Source: Chloroflexus aggregans DSM 9485 (GTDB lineage Bacteria; Chloroflexota; Chloroflexia; Chloroflexales; Chloroflexaceae). Taken from it: a DNA stretch of 64,000 nt. The notes under the pieces were generated by a model. It was given only the letters and a program-made list of their open reading frames with translations. It was not told the DNA's origin and made no database searches. The stretch covers positions 1,313,353 through 1,377,352 of the forward strand of contig NC_011831.1 in assembly GCF_000021945.1 (NCBI RefSeq), in the 5' to 3' direction. Shown one piece after another: positions 8,857 to 63,374 of the stretch. The translations under genes and the position numbers were made by a program. Position 1 is the first letter of the stretch; each line of letters starts with the position of its first letter.

Positions 8857-11193
8857 CTATCTCCTCTCTTCAGCCTTCTGGCGGGCAGGCGCAGCGATCC
8901 GGGCAGCCAGCATCTGCAAGCCGATCTGCAAGCCGATGCGCCATGCCAGCGGATTGTGGTCCAACTTGTGTGACTTGAGTTTATCTACCAACGCATCCAG
9001 CAGCTTATCGATCACATCCATACCGCGCTTCCCGTCAGCCGTGAAGAAATTCGGTTTGTCGCGGCCGGACAACGATTTGCCGAGGAGGTTCTCTGCATTC
9101 CCTGACCGTTGTAAATCCTGCTTGATGGCATCAACCGAGGTGTGCTGAGAAACATGTAACAGCCGAGCAATCGTCTCAAAACGCCCATCGTTGAAACAAG
9201 CGAAGGATGTTGCTTCCGCTTCGAGCTTTTCCTCCCACTCGCGGGTGAAAGCAAGCACGGCCACAAACGGGGGCGACTGCTCGGCAGACGCCATCTGCAA
9301 CGGGGTGAGATCGAGCATCGGACTGGTGATCCCTTGAAGTTGACGGTAGACCGGATGATTGAACGCAACACGACCGAAGCCCTCATTGCGGCGGAGACCG
9401 ATACCCTGCGCCTCTACCTCCCCCAGACGCTGTCGCAGGTCATCCAACGGGATTCCCTTGAAACTCAGGCGTACACTGGAACCGGCAACGATGGCAATAT
9501 CTCGCGCGCGCGGCAACCCTAACGTGGCATTGAAGGAGTCCACCGTCCGCACCGCTGAAAACGCCAGCGCCTCGCCATTCTGGTTGCAATCAATCGAGAC
9601 TGCTGCGCCATTCGGCAACTGCAACTCGCGCTTTAGCCATGCGGTATCGAACCCACGCCAGAAACGTCCCCACGGATCGACGATAATCGCATCACTCAAC
9701 AATAGCATCGTGACATGCTCCGTTGACGTGAGGCGTCCTGTGAGTGACTGCAAGCTGAACAGCGGTTCGTCGATTTTCTGAAACACGGCGCTGACTTTAC
9801 CATAGCCGCGTTGGGTGGCTTTACCGAGGTGCAGTTCGTTTACCGCTCCATTTGGTTGAAGATTGGCCATGCTCTGTAAAAGGTCCCAGACCGTTTGATC
9901 GGTACAGGTTACCTCACCGACAAAATACTGACCCGGCTCTAAAGCTACGTATCCGTACAGATCGCCGGTACGCACCCGCCCACTGTCAGGATCGATGCGA
10001 ATGTGCATTTCCACCATTGTGGACGGTTTGTGCTTGGAACGCGGCATACCACTGACTAATGAAATAAACCCTTCCAAGCTTGTTAACTGGCCGGTACGCT
10101 TACATCGCGGGCATTCCTCTGGCGCACTCGGATCGAACAGACTCCAGACTCCATGGCCTTTATCTCGGCTAGGATCGGCATGCCCCGGATGCAATTCACA
10201 CGTTAGCAGATCGCGCGGGGCAATTATAGTGGGATAACCATTAGCTTTCTGAAACACTTCTACCGGGGTCAACATCGAGAAGCGCACTGTATCACGGTAG
10301 AACAGATCGACAAAATCTTGGTATACCGACCCCTGAAGTTGCTTTCCCAGATGCTTCGCCGCACGCCACGCCAGCGCGCCGCGCAGCACACTGCCGGGAA
10401 TGATGTCGAGCGTCTCGTACTGATTACCGGCTTCGACCCGACGAGCGATCAGTAACGGTTCGTCAAGCCGCATGAGAACGCGCAAGCGATAGGTATGATG
10501 GTTGGGATAGGGGGGCAACTGAAGCGGACTGATGTTGATTGCGCCGGCAGGCAAGGCGGGTTCTGCGACTTGTTCATCTCTTAACCGCTTGGCCAATCGA
10601 TCCAGAATCGCGGTTTCCTGCGCTCGATCAACAAGATGAATCTCGCACTCACCATAGCCACGCCGCTTCCCGGCGCCAAGATTACGCAGCATACGTGCAG
10701 CGGCGACGAGCCATTCAGCCTCGCGCTGCGCATCGGCATCATCATTCTGGCACTCGGCCACGAAGCGGAAGTGCAAGCTGCCATCACCCTCCTCACGGGT
10801 GAACAGTTTATTTTTCTCGGCCCGACGTGTGCGAGGATTAACCCGCACGCGCGTTGTGATCTGCGCCGCCGTTTCGCCCGCACTCCACACGTCCGATGGC
10901 ACGAGCGGTGTCATCATACCCGCAGGTCGTGCAGAAGAGATACGCCAACGCTTTTGGCGGGCGGGCGAACCGAAGATCGTATCCACCACATGGTGATTGG
11001 ACGCGAACACTTGCAGTGTCAGCAGGTTGGTTAAACTTTCGCGCAGGAGACCGGCCAGCACCGTGCCGCGGATTACCGGTACGCCGTCGGCATCGCGGAG
11101 TAGGGCCGAGTCAACTTGCAGACCGAGACCATAACCGGCGCCGATGTGGTAATCGCTCTTGAACTCGATCTCGAATTCGAGACGGATACTCAT
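8857..11193 (-). CDS. RAMP fusion protein (778 aa): N-terminal Csm5/Cmr6-like Cas7 domain, second Cas5 (Csm4/Cmr3)-like domain, helical C-terminal extension
   Basis: Domain 1 has DYHIGAGYG, VIRGTVLAGLLRE, IFGSP and LGAGKRRGYGE. Domain 2 has IIPGSVLRGALAWR, VRFSMLTP (resembling the Csm4 'fS.a.P' motif), an ECPRCKR zinc motif and GIGLRRNEGFGRV. The last roughly 150 aa are predicted helical and could be a fused Cas11. The gene is adjacent to cas10. Confidence 0.5.
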   Translation of the reverse strand: MSIRLEFEIEFKSDYHIGAGYGLGLQVDSALLRDADGVPVIRGTVLAGLLRESLTNLLTLQVFASNHHVVDTIFGSPARQKRWRISSARPAGMMTPLVPSDVWSAGETAAQITTRVRVNPRTRRAEKNKLFTREEGDGSLHFRFVAECQNDDADAQREAEWLVAAARMLRNLGAGKRRGYGECEIHLVDRAQETAILDRLAKRLRDEQVAEPALPAGAINISPLQLPPYPNHHTYRLRVLMRLDEPLLIARRVEAGNQYETLDIIPGSVLRGALAWRAAKHLGKQLQGSVYQDFVDLFYRDTVRFSMLTPVEVFQKANGYPTIIAPRDLLTCELHPGHADPSRDKGHGVWSLFDPSAPEECPRCKRTGQLTSLEGFISLVSGMPRSKHKPSTMVEMHIRIDPDSGRVRTGDLYGYVALEPGQYFVGEVTCTDQTVWDLLQSMANLQPNGAVNELHLGKATQRGYGKVSAVFQKIDEPLFSLQSLTGRLTSTEHVTMLLLSDAIIVDPWGRFWRGFDTAWLKRELQLPNGAAVSIDCNQNGEALAFSAVRTVDSFNATLGLPRARDIAIVAGSSVRLSFKGIPLDDLRQRLGEVEAQGIGLRRNEGFGRVAFNHPVYRQLQGITSPMLDLTPLQMASAEQSPPFVAVLAFTREWEEKLEAEATSFACFNDGRFETIARLLHVSQHTSVDAIKQDLQRSGNAENLLGKSLSGRDKPNFFTADGKRGMDVIDKLLDALVDKLKSHKLDHNPLAWRIGLQIGLQMLAARIAAPARQKAEERR

Positions 11194-25951: not shown

Positions 25952-26080
25952 GCACCACCCGTAGGGGCACGGCGTGCCGTGCCCTCACTGACGCACAGCA
26001 CGCCACCCGTAGGGGCACGGCGTGCCGTGCCCTCACTGACGCACAGCACGCCACCCGTAGGGGCACGGCACGCTGCGTGG
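25952..26080. repeat. 48-bp tandem repeat (2.6 copies), each unit containing a 9-bp GC hairpin (gggcacggc-gt-gccgtgccc)
   Basis: Direct tandem read from the sequence, with no spacers, so it is not CRISPR-like. It lies between the histidine-kinase gene end and the marR promoter. Confidence 0.6.
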
Positions 26081-29102: not shown

Positions 29103-29159
29103 TTTTTTATGTCTCTAATACATCAGATGATCTGATGTTTTGTAAAGTCTTGCGCACTG

Positions 29160-29960
29160 TTGTATTACTGTTGTATTACGCACGAAAGGTTGTTGAACGT
29201 GGAACTCTTCGATCTCGCCTTAATCTTTACCGCTGCATTGCTGGCCGGTGCATTGAACGCGATTGCCGGCGGCGGTAGCTTCTTTTCTTTTCCAGCCCTT
29301 TTAGTCGCCGGCGTGTCACCAATCGTCGCCAATGCGACAAATGCGTTGGCACTCTGGCCGGGCACGCTGGCGAGTGTCGGTGCCTACCGGCGCGAGCTGA
29401 GTGGTCAACGGAACGACATTTGGCTCTTCAGCGGGTTGAGCCTGATCGGTGGACTGCTCGGTGCGCTGTTGTTACTCGCTACCGATGAACAACGTTTTAC
29501 CGCCTTGATCCCGTACCTGTTACTCTTCGCCACCCTGATCTTTACCTTTAGCCCACAGATCACCACCGTAGCCCAACGGCTGGTCGGTCATGGCAGTCGT
29601 CAGCAACGCCTGTTGGTTACGGTTGTCTATTTTGCCATTGCCATCTACGGTGGTTTTTTTGGTGCCGGACTGGGGATTCTCACCCTCGCGGCTTTGGCCT
29701 TGCTCGGTCACGACAACATTCATCGGATGAATGCGCTGAAAACTTTGCAGGCGGCGCTCGTTAACGGGATTGCGGTGGCGACCTTCGTTGCCACCGGCTT
29801 GATCGCGTGGCTACCGGCCCTGATCATGACGATCGGCGCGATCGCCGGCGGCTATGGCGGTGCGGCGATTGCCCGCCGCATAGACGCCCGCCGGGTTCGC
29901 ACCGTGGTTGTGTGGATCAGCATCGGTTTGACGGTCTGGTTTTTTGTGCGTGCATCCTGA
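29160..29960 (+). CDS. TauE/SafE-family (DUF81) anion exporter membrane protein
   Basis: Multiple TM helices with duplicated GxGGG-like motifs (AGGGSFFSFP and GAGLGILT). The likely start is GTG at about 29198. Confidence 0.7.
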   Translation: MYYCCITHERLLNVELFDLALIFTAALLAGALNAIAGGGSFFSFPALLVAGVSPIVANATNALALWPGTLASVGAYRRELSGQRNDIWLFSGLSLIGGLLGALLLLATDEQRFTALIPYLLLFATLIFTFSPQITTVAQRLVGHGSRQQRLLVTVVYFAIAIYGGFFGAGLGILTLAALALLGHDNIHRMNALKTLQAALVNGIAVATFVATGLIAWLPALIMTIGAIAGGYGGAAIARRIDARRVRTVVVWISIGLTVWFFVRAS

Positions 29961-30075
29961 TCGCCATCGGTACGGTCGGATACTGAGTGGGTAGCGGTGC
30001 GCTCCCGCTGCCGACGGCGCCGCACCGCATCCCCGGCGGATCGCCCGGACGTGATCGGAGGTCACGCTACCGGTA
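29912..30075. repeat. Left copy of a 164-bp direct repeat flanking a 13-kb island (includes the last roughly 16 codons of the TauE gene)
   Basis: About 96% identical to 43107..43270. The mismatches are clustered in one 13-bp patch. Confidence 0.7.
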
Positions 30076-30105
30076 CGGTCATACGCACCGCGACAGCGGG
30101 CCAGC

Positions 30106-31318: not shown

Positions 31319-32683
31319 ATGAAAACGACAAAGAAATTTTTCGGTATATTCCCCAAAATATTATTCTTTCCAGTTCTGTTTGTTATTATGGCGTTGCCTC
31401 AATTGCTTTCCAAATCACCTTCGCCATTTTTCAGATCTATTAAGCAGCTTTTGGAATCACAATCTATTTTCACGATATTACTCATCGTTTTTGGAATACT
31501 ATTACTGATAGTACTGATAGCTGTAGTTGCTGTTCTGACAGATGATGAGTGGAAAGAAAACATGAAAAGAAAAGTTGACACTACCGAAGCAGTTAAACGC
31601 GAGCGAGGGGGAAACGGAATCTATACAGACCCGATACCGTTCATCTGGATATTTTCTGTCTTAACTTATGTCTATGTAGAGACAGGTAAAGAATGTGCTA
31701 TTGTGGACGGAGAGCGCATTATTGAAACGAAACAATGGATAACCAAATCTTTCTTCCACGATGCAGTTATCCGGTATGTTTTACTTGAGCCACCACCTCT
31801 AATTATGACTATCGAAAATGTTCGCACGCAAGATGATTTGTACCTCACTGCCGATATCTCTGTTACATACAGAGTTCGAGATCCACTTGCTATTATCAAG
31901 AAAGCTGACCCTCTGAAAATTCTACAAGAGCATGTTAAATCACAATGTACTAATTTAATAGGGCGACTAGACTATTACACTATCGCGGATAAAAAAGCCA
32001 AATATGAAAACGAGATATGTGCAGCTATCCAGCGAGAAAGCATATTACCACTTTTTGAGATTACCAGTGTTCATCTTGAGATGAAATTAGCGGTTGACCC
32101 GCGAAACGTTGAAAAGATTGAAGAACTGAAGAGACAGCAAAAAGAGAAGGATCTTCTGGTTGAAGATAGACAGAAAGAGCGTGATCATGCCCGTGAGATA
32201 GATAAAGCGAAAATCGGGGCAGGTTTAACCATTATTAAAGAGACGGCTGAAATTGCAAAAGGAAGATCGGAGTCCACCAAAGAATACATAGATTCTCTAG
32301 GTCCTAGGGCTATATTATCTATGATAGGAACTCCTTATCATAACTTAGAATCGGCTCCAAATCTACCTATGTTGACCGAAGCAACAGAAAGGTCGAGATA
32401 TGAACGTGAAAAGCCTGAACTCGATAATCTGCAAGAAAACGGTGTAATCAAAAACTATGAATCTCGATGGAGTAAAGATGGAAATTTCTGTGGCGTGGTG
32501 ATTGAGGTGGATGATGGACAAATTCATATTTTGTCCCCAAGCTATCCAGATATTGCCCCGACTATTCAATTCATTTCTAGATCAGGTCAAACTTATGAAT
32601 GGCCTATTGAAAAATGGAATGCTAATATGACTATCGTGCATGTTATCACAATTGCACTCAGTAAAATAAAACTTCTTCAATGA
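31319..32683 (+). CDS. SPFH/band-7 (stomatin/prohibitin/flotillin-like) membrane protein with a long C-terminal extension
   Basis: Two N-terminal TM helices. The SPFH core is TQDDLYLTADISVTYRVRDPLAIIKKADPLKILQEHVKSQCTNLIGRLDYY. AT-rich codon usage. Confidence 0.55.
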   Translation: MKTTKKFFGIFPKILFFPVLFVIMALPQLLSKSPSPFFRSIKQLLESQSIFTILLIVFGILLLIVLIAVVAVLTDDEWKENMKRKVDTTEAVKRERGGNGIYTDPIPFIWIFSVLTYVYVETGKECAIVDGERIIETKQWITKSFFHDAVIRYVLLEPPPLIMTIENVRTQDDLYLTADISVTYRVRDPLAIIKKADPLKILQEHVKSQCTNLIGRLDYYTIADKKAKYENEICAAIQRESILPLFEITSVHLEMKLAVDPRNVEKIEELKRQQKEKDLLVEDRQKERDHAREIDKAKIGAGLTIIKETAEIAKGRSESTKEYIDSLGPRAILSMIGTPYHNLESAPNLPMLTEATERSRYEREKPELDNLQENGVIKNYESRWSKDGNFCGVVIEVDDGQIHILSPSYPDIAPTIQFISRSGQTYEWPIEKWNANMTIVHVITIALSKIKLLQ

Positions 32684-32692
32684 GAGTTATTT

Positions 32693-33232
32693 ATGAATAA
32701 TCCTATTGATATAATGATCTTGATCGTCGTAGGATTGGCAACTTTTATAGGCTTTTTCAAATCACCAAGCTCTATTGTGATCGAAATGATATTACTTTAT
32801 GTAGCCGTGGTTCTAACCTTTCAGTATTTGGTGGGAATTAGTGAAATCATCTCAGGTATATTATCAGTAAACGAACGGGTAATATATATTCTAGGTACAG
32901 CGCTCATATTGGGGATCTATTATGGATTGATAAAGACTTACAACCAAATATATAAGCCAAAGCCCAAGAATGAATCAGGGAATCGCGTGTGGGTTTCTCG
33001 GATAATTAGCGGGAGCCTAGCACTGATTCACATTAGCTTTTTGCTAAGTGCGTTGTTTACAATGATTTATCCACTGGCCTTCGAATGTAGAGAAAGTCTG
33101 ACAGACATACCTTATGAACTATGCATTGCAGCAGATATACTTGAACACAGTGAAATCATGAACAGTAATGCGACAATCGAAATGCTTGACGTATATAATG
33201 CGATAATCCAATTTTGGATTCCACCGAGGTAA
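32693..33232 (+). CDS. Small integral membrane protein (about 4 TM)
   Basis: Hydrophobic segments are present. It follows the SPFH gene after a 9-bp gap. Confidence 0.45.
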   Translation: MNNPIDIMILIVVGLATFIGFFKSPSSIVIEMILLYVAVVLTFQYLVGISEIISGILSVNERVIYILGTALILGIYYGLIKTYNQIYKPKPKNESGNRVWVSRIISGSLALIHISFLLSALFTMIYPLAFECRESLTDIPYELCIAADILEHSEIMNSNATIEMLDVYNAIIQFWIPPR

Positions 33233-33245
33233 TTGGAGGGATAAC

Positions 33246-36038
33246 ATGCACTTAAGAGAACCTTACATTTTTACAATAAATGATTCTGTTGGCGCAAAAG
33301 GAGTTCATGCAATTTTTGCAGCGCGAGTTCCGTTTATCCCTAGCTTTATGACCAGTGATTTTACACGCTCTTTGTCGGGTGGTGGAAAAAGCCGGCTAGA
33401 ATTGATAACTGAACGGCAAGTCAGGTTCATTAACGATTTGCTAAATACCCGCAATATTGGTGTTGCCAATGAAAAAAACTCAGCCAATATAACTATTGAC
33501 TTGCGATATATTGCGCGACCAAATGCAGATAAGAAAAGATTTTCGAGTAACATAGATGTTGTTTTCTTAGGTAAAGCTTTTCACGAAGATGAGGCAACAG
33601 CAAAACGCCTTTGTCATCAATTGTGGCGCAAATTTATCGCGCATTTCCCTTTTGAGGACCCTTTTAACTATCCCCTGGAAGCAGTGAGCTTAGGAGGAGA
33701 CAGTCGGGAAGATATTGACAGGTGTATGGAAACCATGAGGGGATTGGTATATCCTATTCCATTTAATCAACTAGATTGCTCAAATAATCCCTTGCTAGAA
33801 ATACGGAAATATGAAGATTTTGATCCAGAACTTTCGCCAGGAGCAATTGAGGGATATTTTCCGCATCGTTTTATGCCCACATTCGATACTTCAGCCCTCG
33901 GCAGATTTTTAGAAACATTGGTACAACAACAGCAATTATGTGTTGCAAGCATCTGTCTTCGTCCTACACAGTTAACAAGGGATGAAGAAATCTTTCTAAT
34001 GGATTTATTAGCTAAAAATGAAACATATATAACTAAACTAACAGGGCGCAAAAAGCTTCACTTTGAAGAAAGATTCCAAGATGTCCGGGACACTTTTTGG
34101 CCCATTATTAACCGGCGTTATCACTTATTTCAAATCAAAATTCAGGTTTTGGGAGAAAAATACCCCCCAACCGATGTTTTAGAAGCACTTGGTTCAGAAT
34201 TGCTCGGAAATACTTACAAGCAAGAACCTCGTTTATGGGCTAAAGAACAACCTGCAACTATTAATGAGCTAAAAGTAGCCCTGTATAATTTTGAATGTCT
34301 GGAATATAAATCCTGGGGAAAACGAATATTATCTGACTCACGTGCTATACGCCTGCGTCAGTTAGTCACACCGACCGAAGCCGCAGGTGCTTTCCGCTTG
34401 CCCATACCACCTGAAAGTGGTTATTTGCCAGGTATTATTGTACGCGATGAGCCTTTTGTCATACCTCAAAGCACTGCGTCCAGTTCAGTAGAAAGTATTT
34501 CCTTAGGGGAGATTTTTCATCATGGTCAAGCTACAGGGGAAAACTTTTTTGTCCCTGTGCGTGATTTAGCTAAACACGTATTGATTGCTGGCGCAACTGG
34601 TAGTGGTAAAACAAACACCTGTTTGCATTTATTATCACAGCTCTATGCTGACTACAAAGTACCTTTTTTAGTTATGTATCCCATTGATAAATCAGACTAT
34701 CGGCTTTTGATCGGCGATCCTGCTATCAAAGATAGCCTTTTAATTTATACAGTAGGCGATGAAACTACATCACCATTTCGTTTTAATCCATTCTATGTTG
34801 CTGATAAAATTCTGCTCAAAACACATATCAGTTTATTGATGCGCTGTTTTTCAGCCGCGTTTAGTATGTGGGATCCTTTACCAGCAGTATATCGCGCCGC
34901 TTTACGACAAGTTTATCGAGCAAATGGATGGGATTTAGACCATGATACAGGAGAAACTGGGCGTATGCGCCAAGCAAAAACTCCTTGTATGTCACAATTT
35001 TACGAAGTTCTACTATCTGTGACAGAACAAATGACCGCAGGTTATGATGAAGAGGCCAAAGGGCGTGTGCGTCAATCGGCAGAGATTCGCTTACATGATT
35101 TGCTGCTAAATGCCGGAACAGTGGTTAATACCGAACAACCTGCGCCTATTGCTGATATTTTAAGATATCCTACCGTAATGGAATTGGGGCGAGTTGGCTC
35201 AACACAGGACACAGCGTTGATTATGGGTTTTTTGATAGTCTTGCTTATCGAGGAAATACAAAGCAACTATAGGAAGATATCAACCGAAGAACGTCAAAAG
35301 CCATTACGTCATGTGCTGCTTATTGAAGAAGCGCATAGATTGATGTCAGCTGTTCAAAACGCCAGTGAAGATTTAGCCAATCCGCAAGCAAAAGGGGGAG
35401 AAGATTTTGCTAATATTCTCGCAGAGGTGCGCGGATTTGGGCAGGGTATATTTATAGCTGAACAAATCCCAACGCAACTTGTAAATGGAGCTCTAGGTAA
35501 TACAAATTTGAAGATTATGCACAGATTGGAAGATCAAGATAGCTTCAAATTGTTTTGTGAAATTCTCAATCTGAATGAGCGGCAAAAAGAATATGTCCGT
35601 TCGTTAGAGCCTGGACAAGTTATAGTACGGGGACGGGATAGCCGACCGGTTTTTGTAAAGGTGGGTAATTATCTTGATCGTTTTCAAACGTCCGATGATT
35701 ATCCTCTTGTAGATGATAGTGACGAAGCGGTCAAAAAACTTATGAGTAGGGCAAACCTATCTGTGCGTATTCCTACCGCAATGCAATGGTATCCAGAAAA
35801 CGCTATATCCACGTCAACAAGTGCAGACATTTTACTAACTGATGACTCTCAACCCTTCTTGGAAACAGTGCAACAGGCCGTGGAAAGTGAAAATTGGGAA
35901 CGAGTTAGACGAGTAATTTCAGGGTGGTTGAATCCAGCAAATTCACAAAAAATTAAGGTCAAGCTGTGTGAGGAAATTGTCAGAAAATTGAATTACACAG
36001 GCACACAGGCCGAAATAATTCTTTCCCTTTTCAAATAA
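33246..36038 (+). CDS. HerA/FtsK-like (DUF87-type) P-loop ATPase, 930 aa, with an N-terminal extension of about 450 aa
   Basis: Walker A VLIAGATGSGKTN and DEAH-like Walker B HVLLIEEAHRLM. A downstream GFGQGIFIAEQ...R segment is typical of HerA/VirB4-type ATPases. Confidence 0.6.
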   Translation: MHLREPYIFTINDSVGAKGVHAIFAARVPFIPSFMTSDFTRSLSGGGKSRLELITERQVRFINDLLNTRNIGVANEKNSANITIDLRYIARPNADKKRFSSNIDVVFLGKAFHEDEATAKRLCHQLWRKFIAHFPFEDPFNYPLEAVSLGGDSREDIDRCMETMRGLVYPIPFNQLDCSNNPLLEIRKYEDFDPELSPGAIEGYFPHRFMPTFDTSALGRFLETLVQQQQLCVASICLRPTQLTRDEEIFLMDLLAKNETYITKLTGRKKLHFEERFQDVRDTFWPIINRRYHLFQIKIQVLGEKYPPTDVLEALGSELLGNTYKQEPRLWAKEQPATINELKVALYNFECLEYKSWGKRILSDSRAIRLRQLVTPTEAAGAFRLPIPPESGYLPGIIVRDEPFVIPQSTASSSVESISLGEIFHHGQATGENFFVPVRDLAKHVLIAGATGSGKTNTCLHLLSQLYADYKVPFLVMYPIDKSDYRLLIGDPAIKDSLLIYTVGDETTSPFRFNPFYVADKILLKTHISLLMRCFSAAFSMWDPLPAVYRAALRQVYRANGWDLDHDTGETGRMRQAKTPCMSQFYEVLLSVTEQMTAGYDEEAKGRVRQSAEIRLHDLLLNAGTVVNTEQPAPIADILRYPTVMELGRVGSTQDTALIMGFLIVLLIEEIQSNYRKISTEERQKPLRHVLLIEEAHRLMSAVQNASEDLANPQAKGGEDFANILAEVRGFGQGIFIAEQIPTQLVNGALGNTNLKIMHRLEDQDSFKLFCEILNLNERQKEYVRSLEPGQVIVRGRDSRPVFVKVGNYLDRFQTSDDYPLVDDSDEAVKKLMSRANLSVRIPTAMQWYPENAISTSTSADILLTDDSQPFLETVQQAVESENWERVRRVISGWLNPANSQKIKVKLCEEIVRKLNYTGTQAEIILSLFK

Positions 36039-36638
36039 GTGAGGTTTCAAATGATATCTGGACGAGTCAACAGCACACGAAACAATGCATCAAGATCGGT
36101 TCGGTCAACGAACATCAAGTCACGCTTTGGTCCATTAAGAGTAAGCACACCATCAAGTTCAACAAGGATCTCTACTCCAAGAATACCGCGAGTTTCCAGC
36201 GCGAGCAAGAAAAAAGCAACGAAATTTGCTAAAACAATGAAAGCAGGACGTACATTTCAGAAGCGGGTTAATAAAGAATTGATGAAAAGGCACGATAAAG
36301 TTTACTCTGAGGTGTATGTACAGGGTAAAAAATCACACAATGCTAGAATTGATCACCTTGTGGATAGTAAGAAACTACAGCCGTATTCCACCAAGAACTC
36401 AAGGTGGCACAAAGTACAAGCGACGACATGGAAAAAATATGTACGTGAGGCCGCCAAATACCCAGACCGGACTATTCTAACCAACAAGCCAGGGTATACC
36501 CATTTGAAAGGACGCAAGGTAGGTAAAAATCCTGTGTTAGTAATGCCGAAAAGGTACTTAAAAAAAGATACCCAAGCGCGTCTGCAAGAAATAAAAACTT
36601 ACGCTAGTAAAAGACGGGTTCGCATAGAATTACAATAG
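36039..36638 (+). CDS. Highly basic (Lys/Arg/Ser-rich) hypothetical protein; possible nucleic-acid-binding or toxin-like component
   Basis: Extreme K/R content. It is immediately downstream of the ATPase, and the probable true start is ATG at about 36051. Confidence 0.35.
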   Translation: MRFQMISGRVNSTRNNASRSVRSTNIKSRFGPLRVSTPSSSTRISTPRIPRVSSASKKKATKFAKTMKAGRTFQKRVNKELMKRHDKVYSEVYVQGKKSHNARIDHLVDSKKLQPYSTKNSRWHKVQATTWKKYVREAAKYPDRTILTNKPGYTHLKGRKVGKNPVLVMPKRYLKKDTQARLQEIKTYASKRRVRIELQ

Positions 36639-36647
36639 GAGGAAAAA

Positions 36648-37058
36648 ATGGACATCAACATTAAGGAAACTCTTACATCTTTGAAAATAGACTTCATTGA
36701 GTTAGAAAATGATGTTTATGGTCTTAGTATAGCTTCCACCGATGAAAGTAGTCGTAGTTTTCCAGTAGTACTATTTCAATGGACAGCTGGAGATGAGCAA
36801 GAATACATACGTTTGATAATCGCTCCTTTTATAGAGCGCCCAAATGAAGGTTTTGCTTTTGACCTGTTTGAACGGGTTTTAGCTATCAATGAACAATTAC
36901 CTAGGGCTAAATTCTTATTAGACAGTGATGGCGATTTGGGATTAGCATTGGATATAGATATTGAAGAATGGCGTTCGGAGAATTTAGCACGTGCGCTGGA
37001 CGTGTTGGGGTCATTTGCTGATTATTGTTACGAAGAATTAGAGTCTTTTGGCAAGTAA
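36648..37058 (+). CDS. Acidic small protein, YbjN/T3SS-chaperone-like; possible immunity or partner of the basic protein
   Basis: D/E-rich with a predicted alpha/beta pattern. It lies 9 bp after the basic-protein gene. Confidence 0.3.
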   Translation: MDINIKETLTSLKIDFIELENDVYGLSIASTDESSRSFPVVLFQWTAGDEQEYIRLIIAPFIERPNEGFAFDLFERVLAINEQLPRAKFLLDSDGDLGLALDIDIEEWRSENLARALDVLGSFADYCYEELESFGK

Positions 37059-37757
37059 TCTACGGTATACAAAGAACCATCCAACAAGCACATGCACCTG
37101 ACGCGTCTGGTGCTGCCGTCATTGACGGTGAAACGGGCATTGCGACTAGATTTTTGGCGAAAGTGTTTACCACGCACCCGCTACGCGGGTGATGCTCAGG
37201 TCATTGGGTTGCGGAAATAAGTTCTCTGCGCGATAACAAAAAGACACATTGCTCACTAAAACTAGAATGGAGGTAAAGAATGGGTGGCCTTGCGCAATTT
37301 CTCTCTGGAGTGAATTTTCGTGTCACTATACAGAAGTACTGTAAAAAGGATGGAGAATCAATGACATTACAGGCATCGTTGCCTTGCCGCAGGTCACCTG
37401 TCTTGTCGTGGTTCGTCTGGCGAGGTGCGCAGCGACTGAAGTCGACCGGGCTGGCAGGGCATGAGGCTTCTGTCGGCGGTGGGGTTGTGCCCGCGATGTC
37501 CTTGCCTGGGGTGGTGTGAGAAGGTCATGGGTGTCTGGGATGTTGCTGCCGTTGTGCTATAATTCTCAGGCGTGATCGTTATGTCACTTTGCTAATAGGA
37601 ACAGGCAGGGCTTGCGGTCGGTGGGGGCTTGCTTCCGTTCTGGGGGTTGCGGCTAACACGCGCATGCAGGCGACTACTCCGCTTTGCTCGGTCGCAGCGG
37701 CTGAAGCGCAGGCCGTTAGCCAGCGCAACGTGGTTCAAGTCAGAAAGGTGAACAAAA

Positions 37758-37982
37758 ATGCTCCAAGTAAATTTAGAAGAAGCGAAAGGTCGTTTGCCCG
37801 AATTGGTTAATGCCGTGCTAAAGGGTGAAACGGTGTTGATTGTTACAGACCTTCAGGCAATCGTCCAACTGGTGCCCGTGATCTCTTCCATGCGCCGCCA
37901 GTTTGGGAGTGCGAAAGGATTGATTGTCATGGCGGATACTTTCGATGCACCACTCCCAGACTTTAACCCGTATATGCCATGA
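37758..37982 (+). CDS. vapB: Type II antitoxin, Phd/YefM-like (VapB-type partner)
   Basis: MLQVNLEEAKGRLPELVNAVLKGETVLI is a classic antitoxin N-terminus. It overlaps the downstream PIN gene start (ATGA). Confidence 0.6.
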   Translation: MLQVNLEEAKGRLPELVNAVLKGETVLIVTDLQAIVQLVPVISSMRRQFGSAKGLIVMADTFDAPLPDFNPYMP

Positions 37983-38364
37983 AACTACCCCTTGATACAC
38001 ACGCTTTCCTGTGGTTCATCGGCGGTGATGAGCGCCTCAGTCCCAGTGCACGGGCGTTGATTGAAGACATGAGCAATGATGCTTATCTTAGCATTGCCAG
38101 TCTATGGGAGATGGCGATCAAGATCAGTCTTGACCGACTGCAATTGGCACAGCCTTTTGAGATTTTCATCCCACACCAATTAAGCCTGAATAGGATCGGG
38201 TTACCTGTATCACGATGAGCCATACCGCTAAGGTAGCTACCCTGCCCTTTCACCATCGTGACCCTTTTGACCGCTTGCTGGTGGCACAGGCCCAGGTTGA
38301 GCAAATGCCCCTTGTGAGCAGCGATGCAGTATTTGACGCATATGGCCTTATGCGTTTGTGGTGA
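37979..38364 (+). pseudogene. vapC: VapC PIN-domain toxin, frameshifted at about 38215
   Basis: The N-terminal 79 aa (LDTHAFLWFIGGDERLS...SLWEMAIKIS) end at TGA. The PIN C-terminus (LPFHHRDPFDRLLVAQAQVEQMPLVSSDAVFDAYG) continues in the -1 frame. Confidence 0.6.
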
Positions 38365-38425
38365 GTGAAAGAAAAGACAAGATGCGCTGGCTACCGATGC
38401 GTTGCACGTGTCAAGTCCCTGCACC

Positions 38426-38956
38426 TTAAGAAAGGACAATAACTGGTTGCAGAGTTGCGGAAGGCTGGCTCTGAAGTGATCCGTGTGAAAGGCAGCTATC
38501 ACTTTTTGCGACATCTCGACGGACAGCGCACTGTTGGTCCCGTTCATCGTGGAGAGACCATTGGCTCAGGGTTGATGTCGAAGATTCTGCGTGACTGCGA
38601 GATGAGCCGTGATGAGTTGGAAAAACTCCTGTAATCGCGTCATCGGTTGCAGTGGAAAGATCGAGCGGCGGTTGCCCGGGACGGCGCAGCACGGCGCGCG
38701 GCGTCTTTCCCTGACGCCGCATCGTCGCGCACCAGGCGTTCAGTTTCTCGGCAATCTTCTCGGCGAGCGCGATGGCAGCGGTCACGCCGGTCGCTACCCT
38801 GCCGATCTCGTCGATCACAACCACGACCGTCTGCCAGTCGATGTCTCTGGTGGGTTCGCGCTGAACTTCAGCGCCCGCAGCGCGGAGAAGCGCCGGTAAG
38901 GACTCACGCTCATCGTTTGGAAAGTCGAGCGTGAAACTGAGATCATGCTTCGTCAT
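38426..38956 (-). CDS. Hypothetical protein (possible mobile-element fragment), antisense or convergent to the hicA remnant
   Basis: The ORF starts at MTKHDLSFTLDF.... Its C-terminal half is low-complexity and reads through the hicA remnant, so it may be spurious or decayed. Confidence 0.15.
   Translation of the reverse strand: MTKHDLSFTLDFPNDERESLPALLRAAGAEVQREPTRDIDWQTVVVVIDEIGRVATGVTAAIALAEKIAEKLNAWCATMRRQGKTPRAVLRRPGQPPLDLSTATDDAITGVFPTHHGSSRSHAESSTSTLSQWSLHDERDQQCAVRRDVAKSDSCLSHGSLQSQPSATLQPVIVLS
38443..38634 (+). pseudogene. hicA: HicA-family toxin remnant (no start codon; preceded by in-frame TAA)
   Basis: LVAELRKAGSEVIRVKGSYHFLRHLDGQRTVGPVHRGETIGSGLMSKILRD matches the HicA fold motif (GSHH..). 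The N-terminus is truncated. Confidence 0.4.
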
Positions 38957-38974
38957 TGATGGACTCCTGCACTC

Positions 38975-39110
38975 AAATGGAAGACAAGCGTAGCATATGA
39001 CGCAGAAGTCGGCAAGGCTCAAGCGCTGTAATCAGCTCTTTGGCAGTTCAACCGTAAGACAAGTGTAGCATATGACACAGAAGTCGGCAAGGCTCAAGCG
39101 CTGATGAGCG
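38975..39110. repeat. Two direct repeats of about 50 bp (agacaagYgtagcatatgacRcagaagtcggcaaggctcaagcgctg) plus a partial third
   Basis: Read directly from the sequence; about 92% identical copies, 70 bp apart. Confidence 0.6.
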
Positions 39111-39164
39111 GAGCACATGACGCAGGAGTCGGCAAGTGTCACTGACCGTCACGTGCGTTGACCG

Positions 39165-39430
39165 AGCAGACCGCCCCCCCTGCGCGCACCCACCGAGGGG
39201 ACGGACGGTGAGATAACGTATCGGGCGCGCATCCTCGTATGGCGCACCCCGGCACATCCACCAGGGGACGGATCCGCGCGCGTGATGCCGGCCTGCCCCC
39301 AAACCTGGCGTCAGCCCTCCGGTCCTCCGCACGCGGAGGGTTCCAGGCGGATTGCCCCCGCGCGCACCCCTGGCACACCCACCGGGGACGGACCCGCGTG
39401 CGTGGCGCCGGTCGTCCTGCTCCTGCGTGC
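39165..39430. repeat. Three degenerate GC-rich repeats of about 90 bp (gcgcgcaccc..ggggacggaYSSg core)
   Basis: Recurrent motif read from the sequence. No coding frame is conserved across the copies. Confidence 0.4.
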
Positions 39431-40369
39431 CGGTTTGGGAATCACCGGGGATCACGTGGGATTACAGGGGTGCCCGTTGGTAAACTCTCCTACACAAATA
39501 GCCCAATGGTTAGCAGAAATCAGGGGACAATGTTGGATAGAATCTGGTATTCGTGTTGCATCCGTGCATTATCAGTGGGATGAACAGATTAACAAAATAT
39601 TTGCTATTACAAATAATTTTAGAAAGCCGTTACCTGATAGAGTATCTGCTATTTTAGCATTTTGGGCTTCTGAAAAAGCGGGCTAACACCGTTTGCAGCG
39701 GGCAGCGGCTCCGCCGCTGCGGGGCACGCGCCGCGAGCCGGCAAGGTAGTTTTTAGACGAAGGAGTCTTGGCCGTCACGCCGCTGCCGCTGAAGCGAACC
39801 GTTGGGTGGCGGGGTGTTGCAACTAGTCTTGGAGAACGTAAACGTAGAGAGAAGCCCACGCGGGGAACGCATCGAGGTACACAGGGGCATGGATGGAAGA
39901 ACCGGCCGTTGTTCGGCATTGACGGCGGCAGTGATGGTAACGTGCTGGTGCAGGTCAATCCCGATAAGCGGGGAGTGGATGTGTCCATCGCGACTTCCCG
40001 GTGGTACAATGGATAAGGTGCGGCTTTGGGCTGGAGGTTTAACGACCGATGCGGGCTTGGTAGGCAGGTCGTTGACCTGTCCCTACGCTCCTAAATACGC
40101 GCATCCAACGGGGAACCGTAAGAGCGAATCGGTGCTTCGCCCCAACACGGGATTGCCCTGCGTATGGTTGAAGGGCGCCCAGAGGCTACGGCAGCTTGCC
40201 CACACACTCCGTACCCTGGTGCGTTCCCGTCACTCATCACGACTAAGGATACCCTTTTTCGCGCCCAACCGCAACTATATTCTTATAACACGCGCTTCTA
40301 GCCGACAGGCTTCGTCCAGCATCCGGCTGAAGCGCTGGCCGTTAGGACGTCAGATAGGAAAGGATTGAC

Positions 40370-41253
40370 ATGAGTCATAGCGGACAGCCATTGGCAGAGG
40401 TCTTCGGTCACCTGGTCACCGATCAAACAGATACGGCGAAACGGTATCGTTCTCTTCGTCTCTGTCCCTTCAACAACAAGGTGCCGAATTGCACAAAGGA
40501 CAAAGCAAAGAATCCCCTTGGCGTGTGCAGCATCTATCATGAGAACGCGCCTGTCATTACGCGCCTGTCATTACGTGCCCCATCCGATTTCGTCAGGACT
40601 GGATCATTGCTGACCATGCCGCAGCTTTCTTTTTTGAGGAAGGAACACGGTGGACCTCTCTGACTGAAGTGCGTTTACATGATGCTTATGGCAAGTCTGC
40701 TGGAAACATTGATGTGGTTCTCGTTGCCTATGATGATAAAGGGCGGGTTATTGATTTTGGTGCTCTTGAGATCCAGGCTGTTTATATCTCCGGCAACGTC
40801 CGTGAACCATTCGAGTATTACATGGGCGATCCGCAAAACAGGGCTTCCATGGATTGGTCCGCTGAGCCGAATTACCCTCGTCCTGATTATCTCTCATCTT
40901 CTCGTAAAAGGCTCGTTCCACAACTCGTTTATAAGGGCGGAATCTTGCATAGCTGGAAAAAGAAGATTGCTGTGGCACTGAACAAGAGCTTCTTTGCTAC
41001 GCTACCCACTCTCGAACAAGTCTCAAAGAATGAGGCAGATATTGCCTGGCTCATCTACGATTTGGAGCTGCGTGAAGGGCGATACTATCTGACGAAGGTG
41101 GACGAGGTTTTTACTGAATTTGAACCCGCGCTGCTTTCTATTACAACACCATTGCCTGGAAGAGTGGAGGATTTCATCAAACTGCTTCAGGAAAAGCTCG
41201 ACGAGCAATTGGAAACTCCTCCGACAAACCAAACCATCGAGAGGCCGTTTTGA
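40370..41253 (+). pseudogene. Type II restriction endonuclease with an N-terminal Cys4 metal-binding motif (NotI-like architecture), disrupted by a 14-bp tandem duplication
   Basis: A Cys4 cluster (CPFNNKVPNC...GVCS...ITCP once repaired). gcgcctgtcattac is duplicated at about 40547-40574, shifting the frame; removing one copy yields a continuous 291-aa ORF (...ITCPIRFRQDWIIADHAAAFFFEEGTRWTSLTEVRLHDAYGK...). A PD-(D/E)xK-like IDVVLV...ALEIQAVY segment lies downstream. Confidence 0.4.
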
Positions 41254-42254
41254 CTATGTCGACACAGAGACAGCTCCCGTTATTTTCTGAGGAAATGGCT
41301 TTGCCACGCCCGGTGAATGTCGCGTCAGTTCCGCAGCGAAGTCCTTTCCGCTACCCTGGCGGAAAGACATGGTTTGTGCCCACATTCCGACGCTGGGTAG
41401 CTAGTCTGAAACGCAAGCCCCTCATACTCGTTGAACCGTTCGCCGGTGGGGGGATCATCAGCCTTACCGCCCTCTTTGAAAACTTGGTCGAAAAGGCGGT
41501 CATGGTCGAATTGGATGATGAAGTGGCAGCCGTGTGGGAAACCATCGTAAACGGTGATGCGGTGTGGCTTGCCAATCAAATCTTGACCTTCACAATGACG
41601 AGAGAAGCCGTTGAAGCGGAGCTTCAGAAAACTCCCACGACCATACGGGAAAAAGCGTTTCAGACCATTCTGAAAAACCGAACGCTTCATGGGGGAATAC
41701 TCGCTGAAGGCTCTCGCTTCATCAGATACGGAGAAAACGGAAAAGGAATCGGTTCTCGATGGTATCCGAAGACACTTGCTCAGCGACTCATCAATCTGAA
41801 TACTGTTGCACATCGGATTGATTTCCGGTGCGATGATGGCTTGAATGTGATGATGGAGTTTGCCCACCGTGAGGATGTTATCTATTTTATTGATCCTCCC
41901 TATACCGTCGGTGGCAAAAAGGCGGGCAAACGGCTGTATAAACATCATCAGCTTGATCACGAACATCTCTTTACAATTTGTGAGTCGCTCGTGGGCAATT
42001 TTCTTATGACATATGATGAAGCAGATGAAGTGAAGGAAATGGCTCGAAAGCACAGGTTTCAGATGCGTTTGATTCCGATGAAAAATACGCATCACGCCAC
42101 AATGAGAGAATTAGTCATTGGAAGAGATGTATCGTGGTTGGACGAGTTGCCTGCCATTCACGAAGCAAGAGTCGAATATCGTGGTACGACATCCGAGCAA
42201 GAAACGTCCTCCCCACGCACTCCGGCCGACCGTCCCTCATGTGCGCAATCGTAG
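41250..42254 (+). CDS. DNA adenine methyltransferase, Dam-like (D12 class)
   Basis: N-terminal FRYPGGKTW (motif I/X of the Dam family) and YFIDPPYT (motif IV, DPPY). Its start overlaps the endonuclease stop (ATGA). Confidence 0.65.
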   Translation: MTMSTQRQLPLFSEEMALPRPVNVASVPQRSPFRYPGGKTWFVPTFRRWVASLKRKPLILVEPFAGGGIISLTALFENLVEKAVMVELDDEVAAVWETIVNGDAVWLANQILTFTMTREAVEAELQKTPTTIREKAFQTILKNRTLHGGILAEGSRFIRYGENGKGIGSRWYPKTLAQRLINLNTVAHRIDFRCDDGLNVMMEFAHREDVIYFIDPPYTVGGKKAGKRLYKHHQLDHEHLFTICESLVGNFLMTYDEADEVKEMARKHRFQMRLIPMKNTHHATMRELVIGRDVSWLDELPAIHEARVEYRGTTSEQETSSPRTPADRPSCAQS

Positions 42255-43106
42255 CGGCCAGGTGCCGTGCGTCAGCACGTCCCCGTGAACGTGATGAAGG
42301 CGGGAGGGATGGATGCGCAGAAGAGAACACCTAGAAACTTCTTGACGTGGTGTATGAAGTGAACTATATGTATCACGATAATACACTGTGTAATATACAC
42401 AACTGAGATTATAGTATCTTTTGCTAGTTTAATCCCTATTTATTAAGAAGATAAGAGAAGTTCTTTTTGACTTGTGACAACACCAAAGACGCACCACTCC
42501 CACATGTCAGCGTTGTCGAGCAGTCACACCCGTGGAAGTTGATGCACTCGTTCGCCCCGGTGACCGGATTCGTGCGCTTGTATCGCTGTTTGCTTTGGAG
42601 GTGGCATCGTCTCCCTTCTCGTCGTCGTTGCCGGTCGGGGTGACGAGAATGCTCGTGTACCATATGTCCGTCTTGTGGTGCGCGTCATCGGTGGGCGTTC
42701 GACGATTGATCACGCAGTGTTATGAAACAAGAACACCAAACGCGATAGAACCAGACCACAGATCGGCAGAAAACGACAGCGAGTGATACGTCTTATCGCA
42801 AAATCTTAGAAGCAGAAGCAACGGTCTTTGTGCAGTGGGAGCGGCAGCAAAGACCTTCCACATTTTTGGAACGATAGTGTGTGATCCGGTGATGACCATC
42901 TGTTGCACGTTGCACCATCTTTACGTTCGTGCTCAGGCCATAACCTCCAAGAGTAGGTTGTAGGATGTTCTTTAGGTTCCAGTTGGGCCAATGCCGATAC
43001 CTTTGAACGCAGTGCGCAACGACGTGAAGGTGGTCTGCTTGTGTGAGACGGCAGCGAGCCACTACCGGATTACGGATTGAGGATGGCAATCGTTGCGCAA
43101 TCCCTG

Positions 43107-43270
43107 GTGGATCAGCATCGGTTTGACGGTCTGGTTTTTTGTGCGTGCATCCTGATCGCCATCGGTACGGTCGGATACTGAGTGGGTAGCGGTGCGCTCC
43201 CGCTGCCGACGGCGCCGTAACACATACCCGGCGGATCGCCCGGACGTGATCGGAGGTCACGCTACCGGTA
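43107..43270. repeat. Right copy of the 164-bp direct repeat; overlaps the 3' end (last 4 codons plus stop) of the histidine-kinase gene
   Basis: See 29912..30075. Confidence 0.7.
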
Positions 43271-44549
43271 AGGTAAACCAGAACGTCGAACCACGCCCTT
43301 CTTGGCTACTGGCCCAAATCCGGCCACCGTGCCCTTCGACCAGATGTTTGGCAATCGCCAAGCCCAAGCCGGTGCCGCCGGTATGGCGGGTACGCGCCCG
43401 GTCAACTTTGTAGAAGCGCTCGAAGATACGCCGAATATCGCGACTAGAAATGCCGATCCCGGTATCGCGCACACTGATCAAGATCCACGTACCTGCCGGA
43501 TGCGGCGGTCGATCTGTCCGCGAGGGAGGATCATCGACGGCAATATGCAATACTTGGGCGGCAACGGTGATTGTGCCACCTTCGGGGGTAAACTTAACCG
43601 CGTTGTGTAACAAATTGAGCAACACCTGCCCAATCCGATCACCGTCCATTAGCGCGGGCGGTAGATCGGACACCGGTTCGGTACAGATAGTGTGGTGTTT
43701 GCGTTCGGCTTGGGGACGGATACGCTCGATCGCCCGCTCTATCACCGGCCAGACGGCGAGCGGCTCCAGCTTCAACGAGACCCGACCCGACTCGAGACGT
43801 GATAACTCGTGCAGTTCATCAACGAGTTGGGTGACGGCATCGATCTCTTGTGCCATCTGTTCGAGCATCCGAGCAGCGATATCGGGTGGTGGGGCCGATT
43901 GCAACGTCTCAACCAACAATTTGAGCGAAGCTAACGGCGTGCGCAATTCGTGCGACACATTAGCAACCAGATCACGCCGCGCGCGCTCTAACATACTGAT
44001 TTGGGTTAAATCACGGATTGTGATCAGCGCACCGACAATATCCCGCGAAGCGGTGTATAACGGGACAAACTGCAAGTGGAGTGTGCGCCCGGTTGCCAGT
44101 GGACGGATCGTTAATTCACGTTGCTCACCATCGGTCATCGCATCGTGCGCCAATCGGTCAGCTTGATGATCGCGCACCAACGTGATCAACCCACTCCCAC
44201 GCATATCAGGCTGACCGGCCAACAAATGAATTGCTGTGTCGTTATGAAAGACGATTTGACATGCGCGATTGACGACGATGACACCGGTATCGATGGTTTG
44301 CACAAGGGCGACAAAGAGGGGCTGACAGTTGGGGAGGCCAAGCTGGAGCGATGGATCGTCCGGTGGAAGTGATGATGAGAGGGTAAGCGTCATTACCTCA
44401 TCCTGTTCCGCAACAGATGGTGCAGCAGTAGACTCTTGGTCACGGGCAACACGTAAGCGTTCAAGCTGACGCCCCCGGCGCACGGTGAAGATCAGGCTCA
44501 CCGTTAACACAACCGTCGCCACCGTCAGCGTCAATTCCAACAGGGTCAT
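43257..44549 (-). CDS. Two-component sensor histidine kinase (PhoR/BaeS-like)
   Basis: N-terminal TM, PAS-like region, H-box SHELRTPLASL, N-box LLNLLHNAVKFT, and G-boxes DTGIGIS and GGTGLGLAI. Confidence 0.85.
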   Translation of the reverse strand: MTLLELTLTVATVVLTVSLIFTVRRGRQLERLRVARDQESTAAPSVAEQDEVMTLTLSSSLPPDDPSLQLGLPNCQPLFVALVQTIDTGVIVVNRACQIVFHNDTAIHLLAGQPDMRGSGLITLVRDHQADRLAHDAMTDGEQRELTIRPLATGRTLHLQFVPLYTASRDIVGALITIRDLTQISMLERARRDLVANVSHELRTPLASLKLLVETLQSAPPPDIAARMLEQMAQEIDAVTQLVDELHELSRLESGRVSLKLEPLAVWPVIERAIERIRPQAERKHHTICTEPVSDLPPALMDGDRIGQVLLNLLHNAVKFTPEGGTITVAAQVLHIAVDDPPSRTDRPPHPAGTWILISVRDTGIGISSRDIRRIFERFYKVDRARTRHTGGTGLGLAIAKHLVEGHGGRIWASSQEGRGSTFWFTLPVA

Positions 44550-50402: not shown

Positions 50403-50582
50403 AGACGGTGCTTTATCCTTTCCCGCGAGTTTGTTGCCGTAGAATGCACCATCATAATGCACCATCATGTAGTGTACCATGCAAAGAACTGTCGCGAGAA
50501 AGAACGTTTGATACCCCAAACCATCGGTATGTGGGTGAACCGGTACGCTCCTGTCGTTGGTCGGAGGAGTACCGGTCTGGCA

Positions 50583-62471: not shown

Positions 62472-62546
62472 TCCCCAATAGCTCAACGGTAGAGCAGCTG
62501 ACTGTTAATCAGCGGGTTCCTGGTTCGAATCCAGGTTGGGGAGCCA
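62472..62546 (+). tRNA. tRNA-Asn (anticodon GTT)
   Basis: Cloverleaf: acceptor TCCCCAA/TTGGGGA, D-arm AGCTCAACGGTAGAGC, anticodon loop cTGTTAa, T-arm GGTTCGAATCC, and an encoded CCA. Confidence 0.8.
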
Positions 62547-62903: not shown

Positions 62904-63374
62904 ATGGTGGAACCCGTGACAGATCAGGTGCTGCGAGCAATTGATCAGGCTCGCGCACGCTACTACCGCTTGATCGTGATTGTGGGGCCGGCGGGAAGTG
63001 GGAAGACAGCCGCGTTGCAGGCGGTTTCGGCATTGACCTCGGCACCGATTATCAACGTCAATCTTGAGTTGTCGCGCCAATTGCTGACCCTGACCGAACG
63101 CCAACGAGCGATCCAACTCTCACGCATCGTGGGCGACATCGTGAAGAAAACGGCAGACGAACTGGTTTTGCTCGATAATACCGAGATTCTTTTTGATGTC
63201 CATCTGCACGTGGATCCGTTGCGTCTGCTCCAGGGATTGGCGCGCAACCGGACGGTCGTGGCGACCTGGAACGGTACCGTCGGGCCGAACGGGCTGACCT
63301 ACGCCGTTCCGGGTCATCCCGAATACCGCCGGTATCCTACCGGCGACCTCGTTATCGTGGAGGCGAAACCGTGA
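62904..63374 (+). CDS. brxF: Small P-loop protein, BrxF-like (BREX type 3 family)
   Basis: 156 aa with Walker A GPAGSGKT and a Walker B-like VLLDNTEILF. Its size and architecture match BrxF, and it overlaps the start of a downstream methyltransferase (GTGA). Confidence 0.4.
   Translation: MVEPVTDQVLRAIDQARARYYRLIVIVGPAGSGKTAALQAVSALTSAPIINVNLELSRQLLTLTERQRAIQLSRIVGDIVKKTADELVLLDNTEILFDVHLHVDPLRLLQGLARNRTVVATWNGTVGPNGLTYAVPGHPEYRRYPTGDLVIVEAKP

Follow-up and report, generated by a model that had tools for sequence, protein, structure and literature searches.

A NotI-family restriction endonuclease gene interrupted by a 14-nt tandem duplication beside a retained adenine methyltransferase gene, in a cassette of putative integron origin from Chloroflexus aggregans DSM 9485

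The stretch of DNA analysed here, referred to as the window, comprises 64,000 nucleotides of Chloroflexus aggregans DSM 9485 (contig NC_011831.1, positions 1,313,353 to 1,377,352 of the forward strand). It contains a two-gene restriction-modification (R-M) cassette, in which an interrupted gene for a NotI-family type II restriction endonuclease (R) is followed by a gene for an N6-adenine DNA methyltransferase (M). The features of the cassette and the sites that border it are listed in Table 1. Taken as a whole, the analysis makes it highly likely that the endonuclease was lost by a recent 14-nt duplication while the D12-class methyltransferase was kept, that the cassette is of integron origin and that loss of R in it is recurrent. 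The ancestral pair would have combined a PD-(D/E)XK endonuclease bearing a four-cysteine metal cluster with a methyltransferase protecting the same adenine-containing target. Loci with related pairs, which were used for comparison, are designated by an L and a number.

Table 1. Positions in the window of the R-M cassette, its genes, the lesion and the attC-like sites (aa, amino acids; ORF, open reading frame; a slash marks the cassette junction)
Feature	Position	Strand	Description and basis
Whole R-M gene cassette	40342..42277	+	TT of the upstream core G/TTAGGAC to G of its own degenerate 3' core; homology, alignment with sister loci, L086 and L005
NotI-family type II restriction endonuclease pseudogene	40370..41253	+	289 aa after removal of one 14-nt copy; Pfam NotI, homologues, Foldseek
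Lesion: two perfect tandem copies of GCGCCTGTCATTAC	40547-40560 and 40561-40574	+	Insertion after codon 64, between Cys53 and Cys65
Truncated N-terminal product, 97 aa	40370..40663	+	64 native residues (three of the four Cys) and 33 out-of-frame residues; stop 40661-40663
C-terminal remnant ORF, 194 aa from GTG	40669..41253	+	Catalytic core D110, E129, Q131 (repaired numbering); without the Cys4 domain
D12-class (alpha-group) N6-adenine DNA methyltransferase, 332 aa	41256..42254	+	PF02086; ACL24008.1 / B8G751
Former methyltransferase stop	42210..42212	+	TAA in L088, L089, L090 and L091 (alignment); TCC in the window
Degenerate own attC of the cassette	42207..42277	+	R'' TCCTCCC (ancestrally TCCTAAC), imperfect hairpin, R' GTCAGCA, not GTTRRRY
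attC-like site of the preceding cassette	40283..40347	+	R'' TTATAAC, 13-bp bulged stem, R' GTTAGGA; G/TT is the cassette 5' boundary; folding
Sibling attC-like site (GGCTAAC...GTTAGCC)	37649..37721	+	Shares TAACACGCGC and a 22-nt 3' arm with 40283-40347

The native endonuclease gene has no uninterrupted reading frame, as the frame shifts after codon 64. The cause is an exact 14-nt tandem duplication at 40547-40574, the very lesion to which a sequence-only reading of this DNA had attributed the knock-out. Identity at period 14 spans 40545-40575, and a 3-nt microhomology, ACG, flanks the duplicated unit. By arithmetic, 64000 x 4^-14 or 2e-4 exact 14-nt tandem duplications are expected by chance in a random 64-kb sequence. 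With one copy deleted, a single continuous ORF results, of 289 aa and not of the 291 aa first given, and the gene is otherwise free of stops and indels. At the DNA level, the intact cassette L001 from an unrelated metagenome aligns with 92% identity over 40340-42169, and the sole gap is the 14 nt. The 14-mer is present as a single copy in L001 and in the sister Chloroflexus loci described below. In RefSeq, the two pieces of the gene are annotated as separate ‘NotI family restriction endonuclease’ proteins. The N-terminal fragment, starting at ATG 40370, is WP_269543908.1 in the NCBI nr database, and a 215-aa version of the C-terminal remnant with an ATT start is WP_269544104.1.

Mechanistically, the 14-nt segment lying between the ACG microhomologies was duplicated in tandem after codon 64, probably by replication slippage or by microhomology-mediated duplication, as the 3-nt microhomology suggests. 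The resulting frameshift deprives the product of its fourth cysteine ligand and of the whole catalytic domain, with translation stopping 33 codons later. Given this frameshift, the endonuclease is very probably null.

The identity of the endonuclease could be established from the repaired ORF. It matches the Pfam NotI family (PF12183) with E=2.2e-67 and 227.3 bits (cut-off 22) over model positions 8-228 of 238. Had the repaired ORF lacked homology to restriction endonucleases, the proposed identity would have fallen; the search returned, besides the Pfam match, more than 6000 homologues, the best of which are 94% identical, with lengths of 289-295 aa. The four-cysteine N-terminal cluster that had been put forward as the NotI-like feature is borne out by C32, C41, C53 and C65, which are invariant among 12 aligned homologues. 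The cluster is complete only after repair, as the native product of 97 aa lacks C65. Likewise invariant in the homologues are the residues across the repair junction, HENAPVITCPIRFRQDW, and the residues D110, E129 and Q131. At position 99 the window endonuclease has H where nearly all homologues have N. In PADLOC it matched only the generic type II restriction endonuclease model (1.8e-7).

At the structural level, the top three Foldseek matches were all NotI (3C25_B, 3C25_A and 3BVQ_A, E 2e-6 to 1e-4), the next match being at 0.075. These come from a poor, low-confidence AlphaFold model (mean pLDDT, the per-residue model confidence, 53; TM-score 0.35-0.41 to the NotI matches) built on a shallow alignment of 12 near-identical sequences. 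Sequence searches of the PDB with the repaired protein and with the 12-sequence profile gave no match. Compared with NotI itself (PF12183; PDB 3BVQ, 3C25), the window protein belongs to the same Pfam family and has both the four N-terminal cysteines and the invariant D...E-x-Q of a putative PD-(D/E)XK-type core. It differs in being only ~13-14% identical, in its length of ~290 aa against the 383 aa of NotI, and in being encoded by a pseudogene. A further difference is its partner, an N6-adenine methyltransferase, which implies a target with an A in it, so that recognition of GCGGCCGC is not expected. It is thus reasonable to predict a target other than the NotI site.

In the case of the methyltransferase, the match to PF02086 (42.4 bits, cut-off 22, model positions 1-241 of 253) and the motif EPFAGGG upstream of the catalytic DPPY support the N6-adenine class that had been read from DPPY. 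The gene had also been described as overlapping the endonuclease stop. This most likely does not hold, as all homologues place the start at ATG 41256, 2 nt past that stop; an upstream TTG at 41250 would create the overlap and finds no support among them. Regarding its intactness, the ORF is whole and keeps 126 of 127 conserved positions (the exception being L292V), whereas the native stop is lost. The sister methyltransferases end ...ETS-TAA after 318 aa, and the window ORF reads through 14 further codons to 42254. C-terminal tails in the homologues extend 7 to 37 residues past a conserved anchor, and since tails of this family naturally vary in length, the 14-aa extension is probably tolerated. 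With TIGR00571, whose cut-off is 114.85, the protein scores 36.8 bits; it is no Dam orthologue and is therefore not of the kind of the conserved regulatory orphans Dam and CcrM. Its best match in the defence library is component B of PD-lambda-5 (PADLOC PDLC04018, E=2.6e-37), a system described as a compacted RM+Abi (abortive infection) system (PMC9519451). The likeness ends there, as the window endonuclease does not match the PD-lambda-5 partner.

Several measures bear on the age of the lesion. The ratio of non-synonymous to synonymous substitution rates (dN/dS) of the repaired endonuclease against L001, the nearest intact copy, is 0.11, and six intact copies compared among themselves give 0.05-0.11. 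When positions conserved in at least 97% of 120 homologues are considered, the repaired endonuclease keeps 141 of 141. As the dN/dS lies within the range of intact copies and all conserved positions are kept, the duplication is, from the alignments, a recent one in a gene otherwise indistinguishable from a functional allele. The ‘clean, recent’ inactivation that had been claimed is thereby upheld. For the methyltransferase, dN/dS against the sisters is 0.08-0.09, indicating an ORF retained under purifying selection. It would persist in this way as a solitary methylase gene.

Loss of the endonuclease was also detected in close relatives. Three sister Chloroflexus assemblies, L088 (GCA_026003795.1), L089 (GCA_017880035.1) and L090 (from a Joint Genome Institute, JGI, metagenome), carry the cassette at the orthologous site, with the same upstream attC and flanks that are 94-96% identical. 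Downstream of the cassette they have the same histidine kinase, response regulator and major facilitator superfamily genes as the window. All three have the 14-mer in single copy and a common 1-nt deletion at window position 40484, codon 39, to which L088 adds a +1 insertion. In these endonuclease remnants the invariant residues N40, P49 and Y56 are changed, and mutual differences run at ~1:1 non-synonymous to synonymous. The sister methyltransferases are intact at 318 aa. Further away, the endonuclease of L081, a metagenome-assembled genome (MAG) of Roseiflexus (6001-6881), has a 4-nt deletion at ~codon 54, ~25 nt from the site of the window duplication. There are thus three independent endonuclease frameshifts within the first 65 codons, in the Cys4 region: in the window, in the Chloroflexus sisters and in the Roseiflexus MAG. 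Since these lesions differ, loss of R with retention of M is recurrent, and the alignments indicate at least two losses of the endonuclease at this site, with the methylase retained each time.

The opposite state was seen in three other MAG loci, where the methyltransferase is frameshifted or internally deleted (L010 at ~7070, L036 at 7108-7112, L044 at ~7626) and the endonuclease appears intact. A cell in this state should die unless it is protected by another methylase, its endonuclease is silently dead or the assemblies are in error.

The boundaries of the pair point to an integron. Homology to intact cassettes begins at 40340, and the 5' boundary, GTTAGGAC at 40341-40348, is a junction that adjoins attI or attC in L086, L005, L053 and other loci. 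The conserved G/TTAGGAC lies ~28 nt upstream of the endonuclease ATG, and the hairpins preceding it are unrelated between loci. At -45..-15 upstream of R, GTTRRR is found in 25 of 77 loci, compared to 4.6% of controls, which is a ~7-fold enrichment. An integron integrase (TIGR02249, 477 bits, cut-off 265) lies divergently and immediately upstream of the pair in L086 and L087, and the pair is the first cassette there; same-strand small cassettes follow, including an NTase/HepT pair. Integrase homologues also adjoin the pair in L005 and L053, and a truncated remnant is present in L081. Canonical attC sites (GTCCTAAC...GTTAGGC in L086; also in L005 and L053) overlap the 3' end of the methyltransferase. 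In the window, the corresponding site is degenerate: the same two A-to-C changes that removed the methyltransferase stop destroyed the AAC of the attC R'', and R' has GTC instead of GTT throughout the Chloroflexus clade.

An ad hoc attC detector found the site preceding the cassette as its only site in the 64 kb, with none in Markov controls at the same stringency. The 22-mer of the 3' arm that this site shares with its sibling occurs twice in the window, against 0.01 expected. On the loci, the same detector was insensitive and noisy (51 matches compared to 29 in controls), so the integron case rests on the integrases, the common GTTRRRY junction and the attC sites read by hand. From this evidence, we infer that the compact type II R-M pair is a gene cassette derived from an integron. 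No integron integrase was found in the 64-kb window (best tblastn E=0.45); with no adjoining integrase and a degenerate attC, the cassette is probably now fixed in place, as far as its sequence can tell.

The same pair, at 70-94% protein identity and counting more than 6000 proteins, occurs in Chloroflexota, Nitrospirota, Planctomycetota, Chlorobiota, Desulfobacterota, Omnitrophota and archaea. Archaeal carriers such as Methanothrix and Bathyarchaeia, which stand beside those of many bacterial phyla in loci L005-L084, are consistent with integron spread across domains. Type II R-M systems in integron cassettes have been documented before, as in the case of the XbaI system (cited in PMC10661359), and type II and IV systems are known from sedentary chromosomal integrons (bioRxiv 10.1101/2024.07.02.601686). 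The pair resembles such cassettes in being a two-gene unit between a G/TTRRRY junction and an attC, in standing as the first cassette by intI (L086, L087) and in having toxin-antitoxin cassette neighbours. The window copy differs in its degenerate attC and in the absence of an integrase from the 64 kb, and resembles a fossil cassette in an attC cluster.

To relate the methyltransferase to a modified motif, as the sequence-only reading had proposed, the published single-molecule real-time (SMRT) methylome of DSM 9485 was consulted (Blow et al. 2016, PMC4752239), which covers 25 methyltransferase genes and 17 motifs. Elimination among the neighbouring genes makes it likely that the window gene is M.CagORF1098P, partner of CagORF1098P, which the supplementary tables give as ‘motif unknown, possibly active’ (PMC4752239). 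In support of this, consecutive ACL numbers put the brxF gene (ACL24028) of a BREX (bacteriophage exclusion) type 3 system 20 genes downstream, and the table entry Cagg_1119 falls about where the BREX methylase is expected. Calibration of locus tags by UniProt accession order was inconsistent over long range, the accessions being consecutive locally, and a literature search for the locus tag or the accessions found nothing. The probable entry has no assigned motif. The palindromic N6-methyladenine (m6A) motifs are assigned elsewhere (GATC to Cagg_2087, TTCGAA to Cagg_1379, TCCGGA to Cagg_2238, CATG to Cagg_2450 and GANTC to Cagg_3343), and those m6A motifs that lack a gene, CCCASG, CGGAG and CATCC, are all asymmetric (PMC4752239). 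It may be that another motif masks the target or that the enzyme is silent. Palindrome avoidance, examined in the cassettes and in 647 kb of flanks of 82 cassette-bearing loci, returned only the generic CTAG, GTCGAC and CAGCTG, and no A-containing candidate.

Other explanations of the interrupted gene have to be weighed against a real and stable inactivation. If the duplication were an assembly or sequencing artefact, the genome would truly carry the 14-mer once and encode an intact endonuclease. Mis-assembly can indeed yield short tandem duplications, and JGI metagenome contigs, scanned for the duplicated junction and for an exact match to the single-copy ancestral allele, yielded neither and thus give no environmental confirmation. 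Against this, a de novo assembly of SRA run SRR253098 in Logan matches window 37370-43136 at 100% identity and contains the duplication, so that the finished reference and a separate assembly agree base for base over 5.8 kb. RefSeq, too, annotates the gene as two fragments, and a perfect 14-nt insertion is atypical of Sanger, 454 or Illumina error. The same 64 kb hold three further perfect tandem duplications of 11-13 nt, at 8912-8937 (12 nt), 29156-29179 (11 nt) and 50443-50468 (13 nt), which shows that this class of mutation is real in the genome; four such short perfect duplications in 64 kb are far above chance and suggest an active short-duplication mutational process. We consider an artefact highly improbable. 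A reversible phase-variation switch, in which gain and loss of the 14-nt unit toggles the endonuclease, is only slightly less so and still very unlikely. Slippage or recombination can lose perfect tandem repeats precisely, which would restore a fully conserved ORF, and with the methyltransferase retained such a reversion would be tolerated if that enzyme is active. However, the long unit is present just twice and forms no repeat tract, both assemblies show the same two-copy state, all relatives inspected at nucleotide level have exactly one copy, and none of ~85 loci varies in copy number. In the fetched loci other than L081 (4-nt deletion) the endonuclease is in a single unbroken frame, and the unrelated 1-nt deletion of the sisters fits plain decay rather than a dedicated switch. 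Programmed frameshifting was set aside, no scan for slippery sites having been made, as the relatives have no insertion here and the lesion of the sisters is a different one. The footprint of an excised insertion sequence was likewise set aside, no test having been directed at it: the two perfect copies adjoin with no foreign sequence in between, and a target duplication of 14 nt would be unusually long for an insertion sequence.

The order of events could also differ. The endonuclease may already have been compromised, or the methyltransferase weakened first by its stop loss, the duplication being then secondary or a selected escape. The lineage-specific TAA-to-TCC read-through and L292V in the methyltransferase would fit, as would H99 in the endonuclease and a methyltransferase to which the methylome assigns no motif. 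On the other hand, the endonuclease retains every one of its highly conserved positions at a dN/dS that is not elevated, and the extension of the methyltransferase is probably tolerated, given the natural variation of tails, so that we regard this order as unlikely. There remain several observations that weigh against our own preferred account, a recent loss of R with retention of M. The missing motif of the methyltransferase, under its probable entry M.CagORF1098P, is one of these. The SRR253098 data possibly derive from the same DNA preparation as the reference, and the agreement is between assemblies, not reads. The 194-aa C-terminal ORF keeps the catalytic residues, and its expression is possible. 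Finally, synonymous divergence (dS) between window and sisters is 0.41 for R and 0.19 for M, compared to only 0.05-0.14 for the flanking histidine kinase, and the window R is closer to L001, from an unrelated metagenome contig (dS 0.25). As the dS of the cassette exceeds that of its flank, the alleles are not simply vertical, and the cassette allele of one lineage was probably replaced by recombination. Instead of two independent losses that both started from a single intact ancestor, there could have been a loss in one lineage together with replacement by a fresh allele, itself lost afterwards.

Regarding the surroundings of the cassette, a 168-nt direct repeat, 97% identical between 29912-30079 and 43107-43274, brackets a variable segment of 13.2 kb, in which the R-M cassette lies together with a low-GC operon and with toxin-antitoxin remnants. 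In the sister Chloroflexus genomes, NB-ARC/CHAT genes replace part of this segment. The operon (31319-37058, 38-44% GC) has five genes, which encode an SPFH/Band-7 protein, a 179-aa protein, a 930-aa HerA-like P-loop ATPase, a 199-aa protein and a YbjN-domain protein. The ATPase matches PADLOC ‘mad8’ (3e-15), and the operon may represent a defence system not yet characterised. The stretch between the two attC-like sites (37758-38634) contains small ORFs, among them a weak PIN-domain remnant, along with a HicA toxin gene (38455-38634); toxin-antitoxin genes are typical of cassette content. At 38973-39148, in an apparently non-coding GC-rich stretch, a 56-nt direct repeat occurs three times with 66-100% identity. 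Outside the variable segment, a perfect 48-nt tandem repeat of 2.4 copies is located at 25955-26069 and contains a GC-rich palindrome (GGCACGGCGTGCCGTGCC). Immediately after the cassette, a 147-nt AT-rich segment (42281-42427) is present in the window and in L089 and is absent from L088, L090 and L091. Beyond window position 42537, L089 has an extra 1.4 kb with four small ORFs, where the window has ~400 nt before the common flank resumes. These segment differences show that the stretch downstream of the cassette varies between strains. Towards the end of the window, BrxF (62904-63374; PADLOC E=9e-91; ACL24028) directly follows tRNA-Asn (62472-62546) and is the start of a BREX type 3 island that extends past the window end.

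Decay of an endonuclease that leaves a solitary methylase is well known and is ordinary R-M decay, and public databases already assign the genes to their families; nothing here alters how R-M biology is understood at present. What is new here is the exact lesion, its recency, the independent loss in the sisters and the integron-cassette origin of the pair. Orphan methyltransferases left behind by decayed R-M systems were surveyed by Blow et al. 2016 (PMC4752239). The window gene resembles these in the frameshifted endonuclease, in the methyltransferase ORF under purifying selection and in the like outcome among its sisters; it differs in being known as such from its sequence and in having no assigned motif. 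In a strain with a published methylome, such a methyltransferase without an assigned motif deserves to be flagged.

We hold it doubtful, though a little less so than a prior compromise of the enzymes, that the pair is among the most widely disseminated integron cassettes known, with copies stranded in integrase-less arrays repeatedly disarmed and the methylase kept by selection for an epigenetic or anti-restriction role. On that reading, reversion of the perfect duplication in DSM 9485 could yet arm the system again. In practice, the repaired ORF offers a ready candidate for a new NotI-family enzyme of thermophile origin, with a predicted adenine-containing target. With one lesion in an otherwise perfect gene, the locus offers a tidy and datable case of a selfish R-M unit that appears to be decaying to a solitary methyltransferase, and it documents an R-M pair that, by its junctions and integrase neighbours, moves as an integron cassette across bacterial and archaeal phyla.

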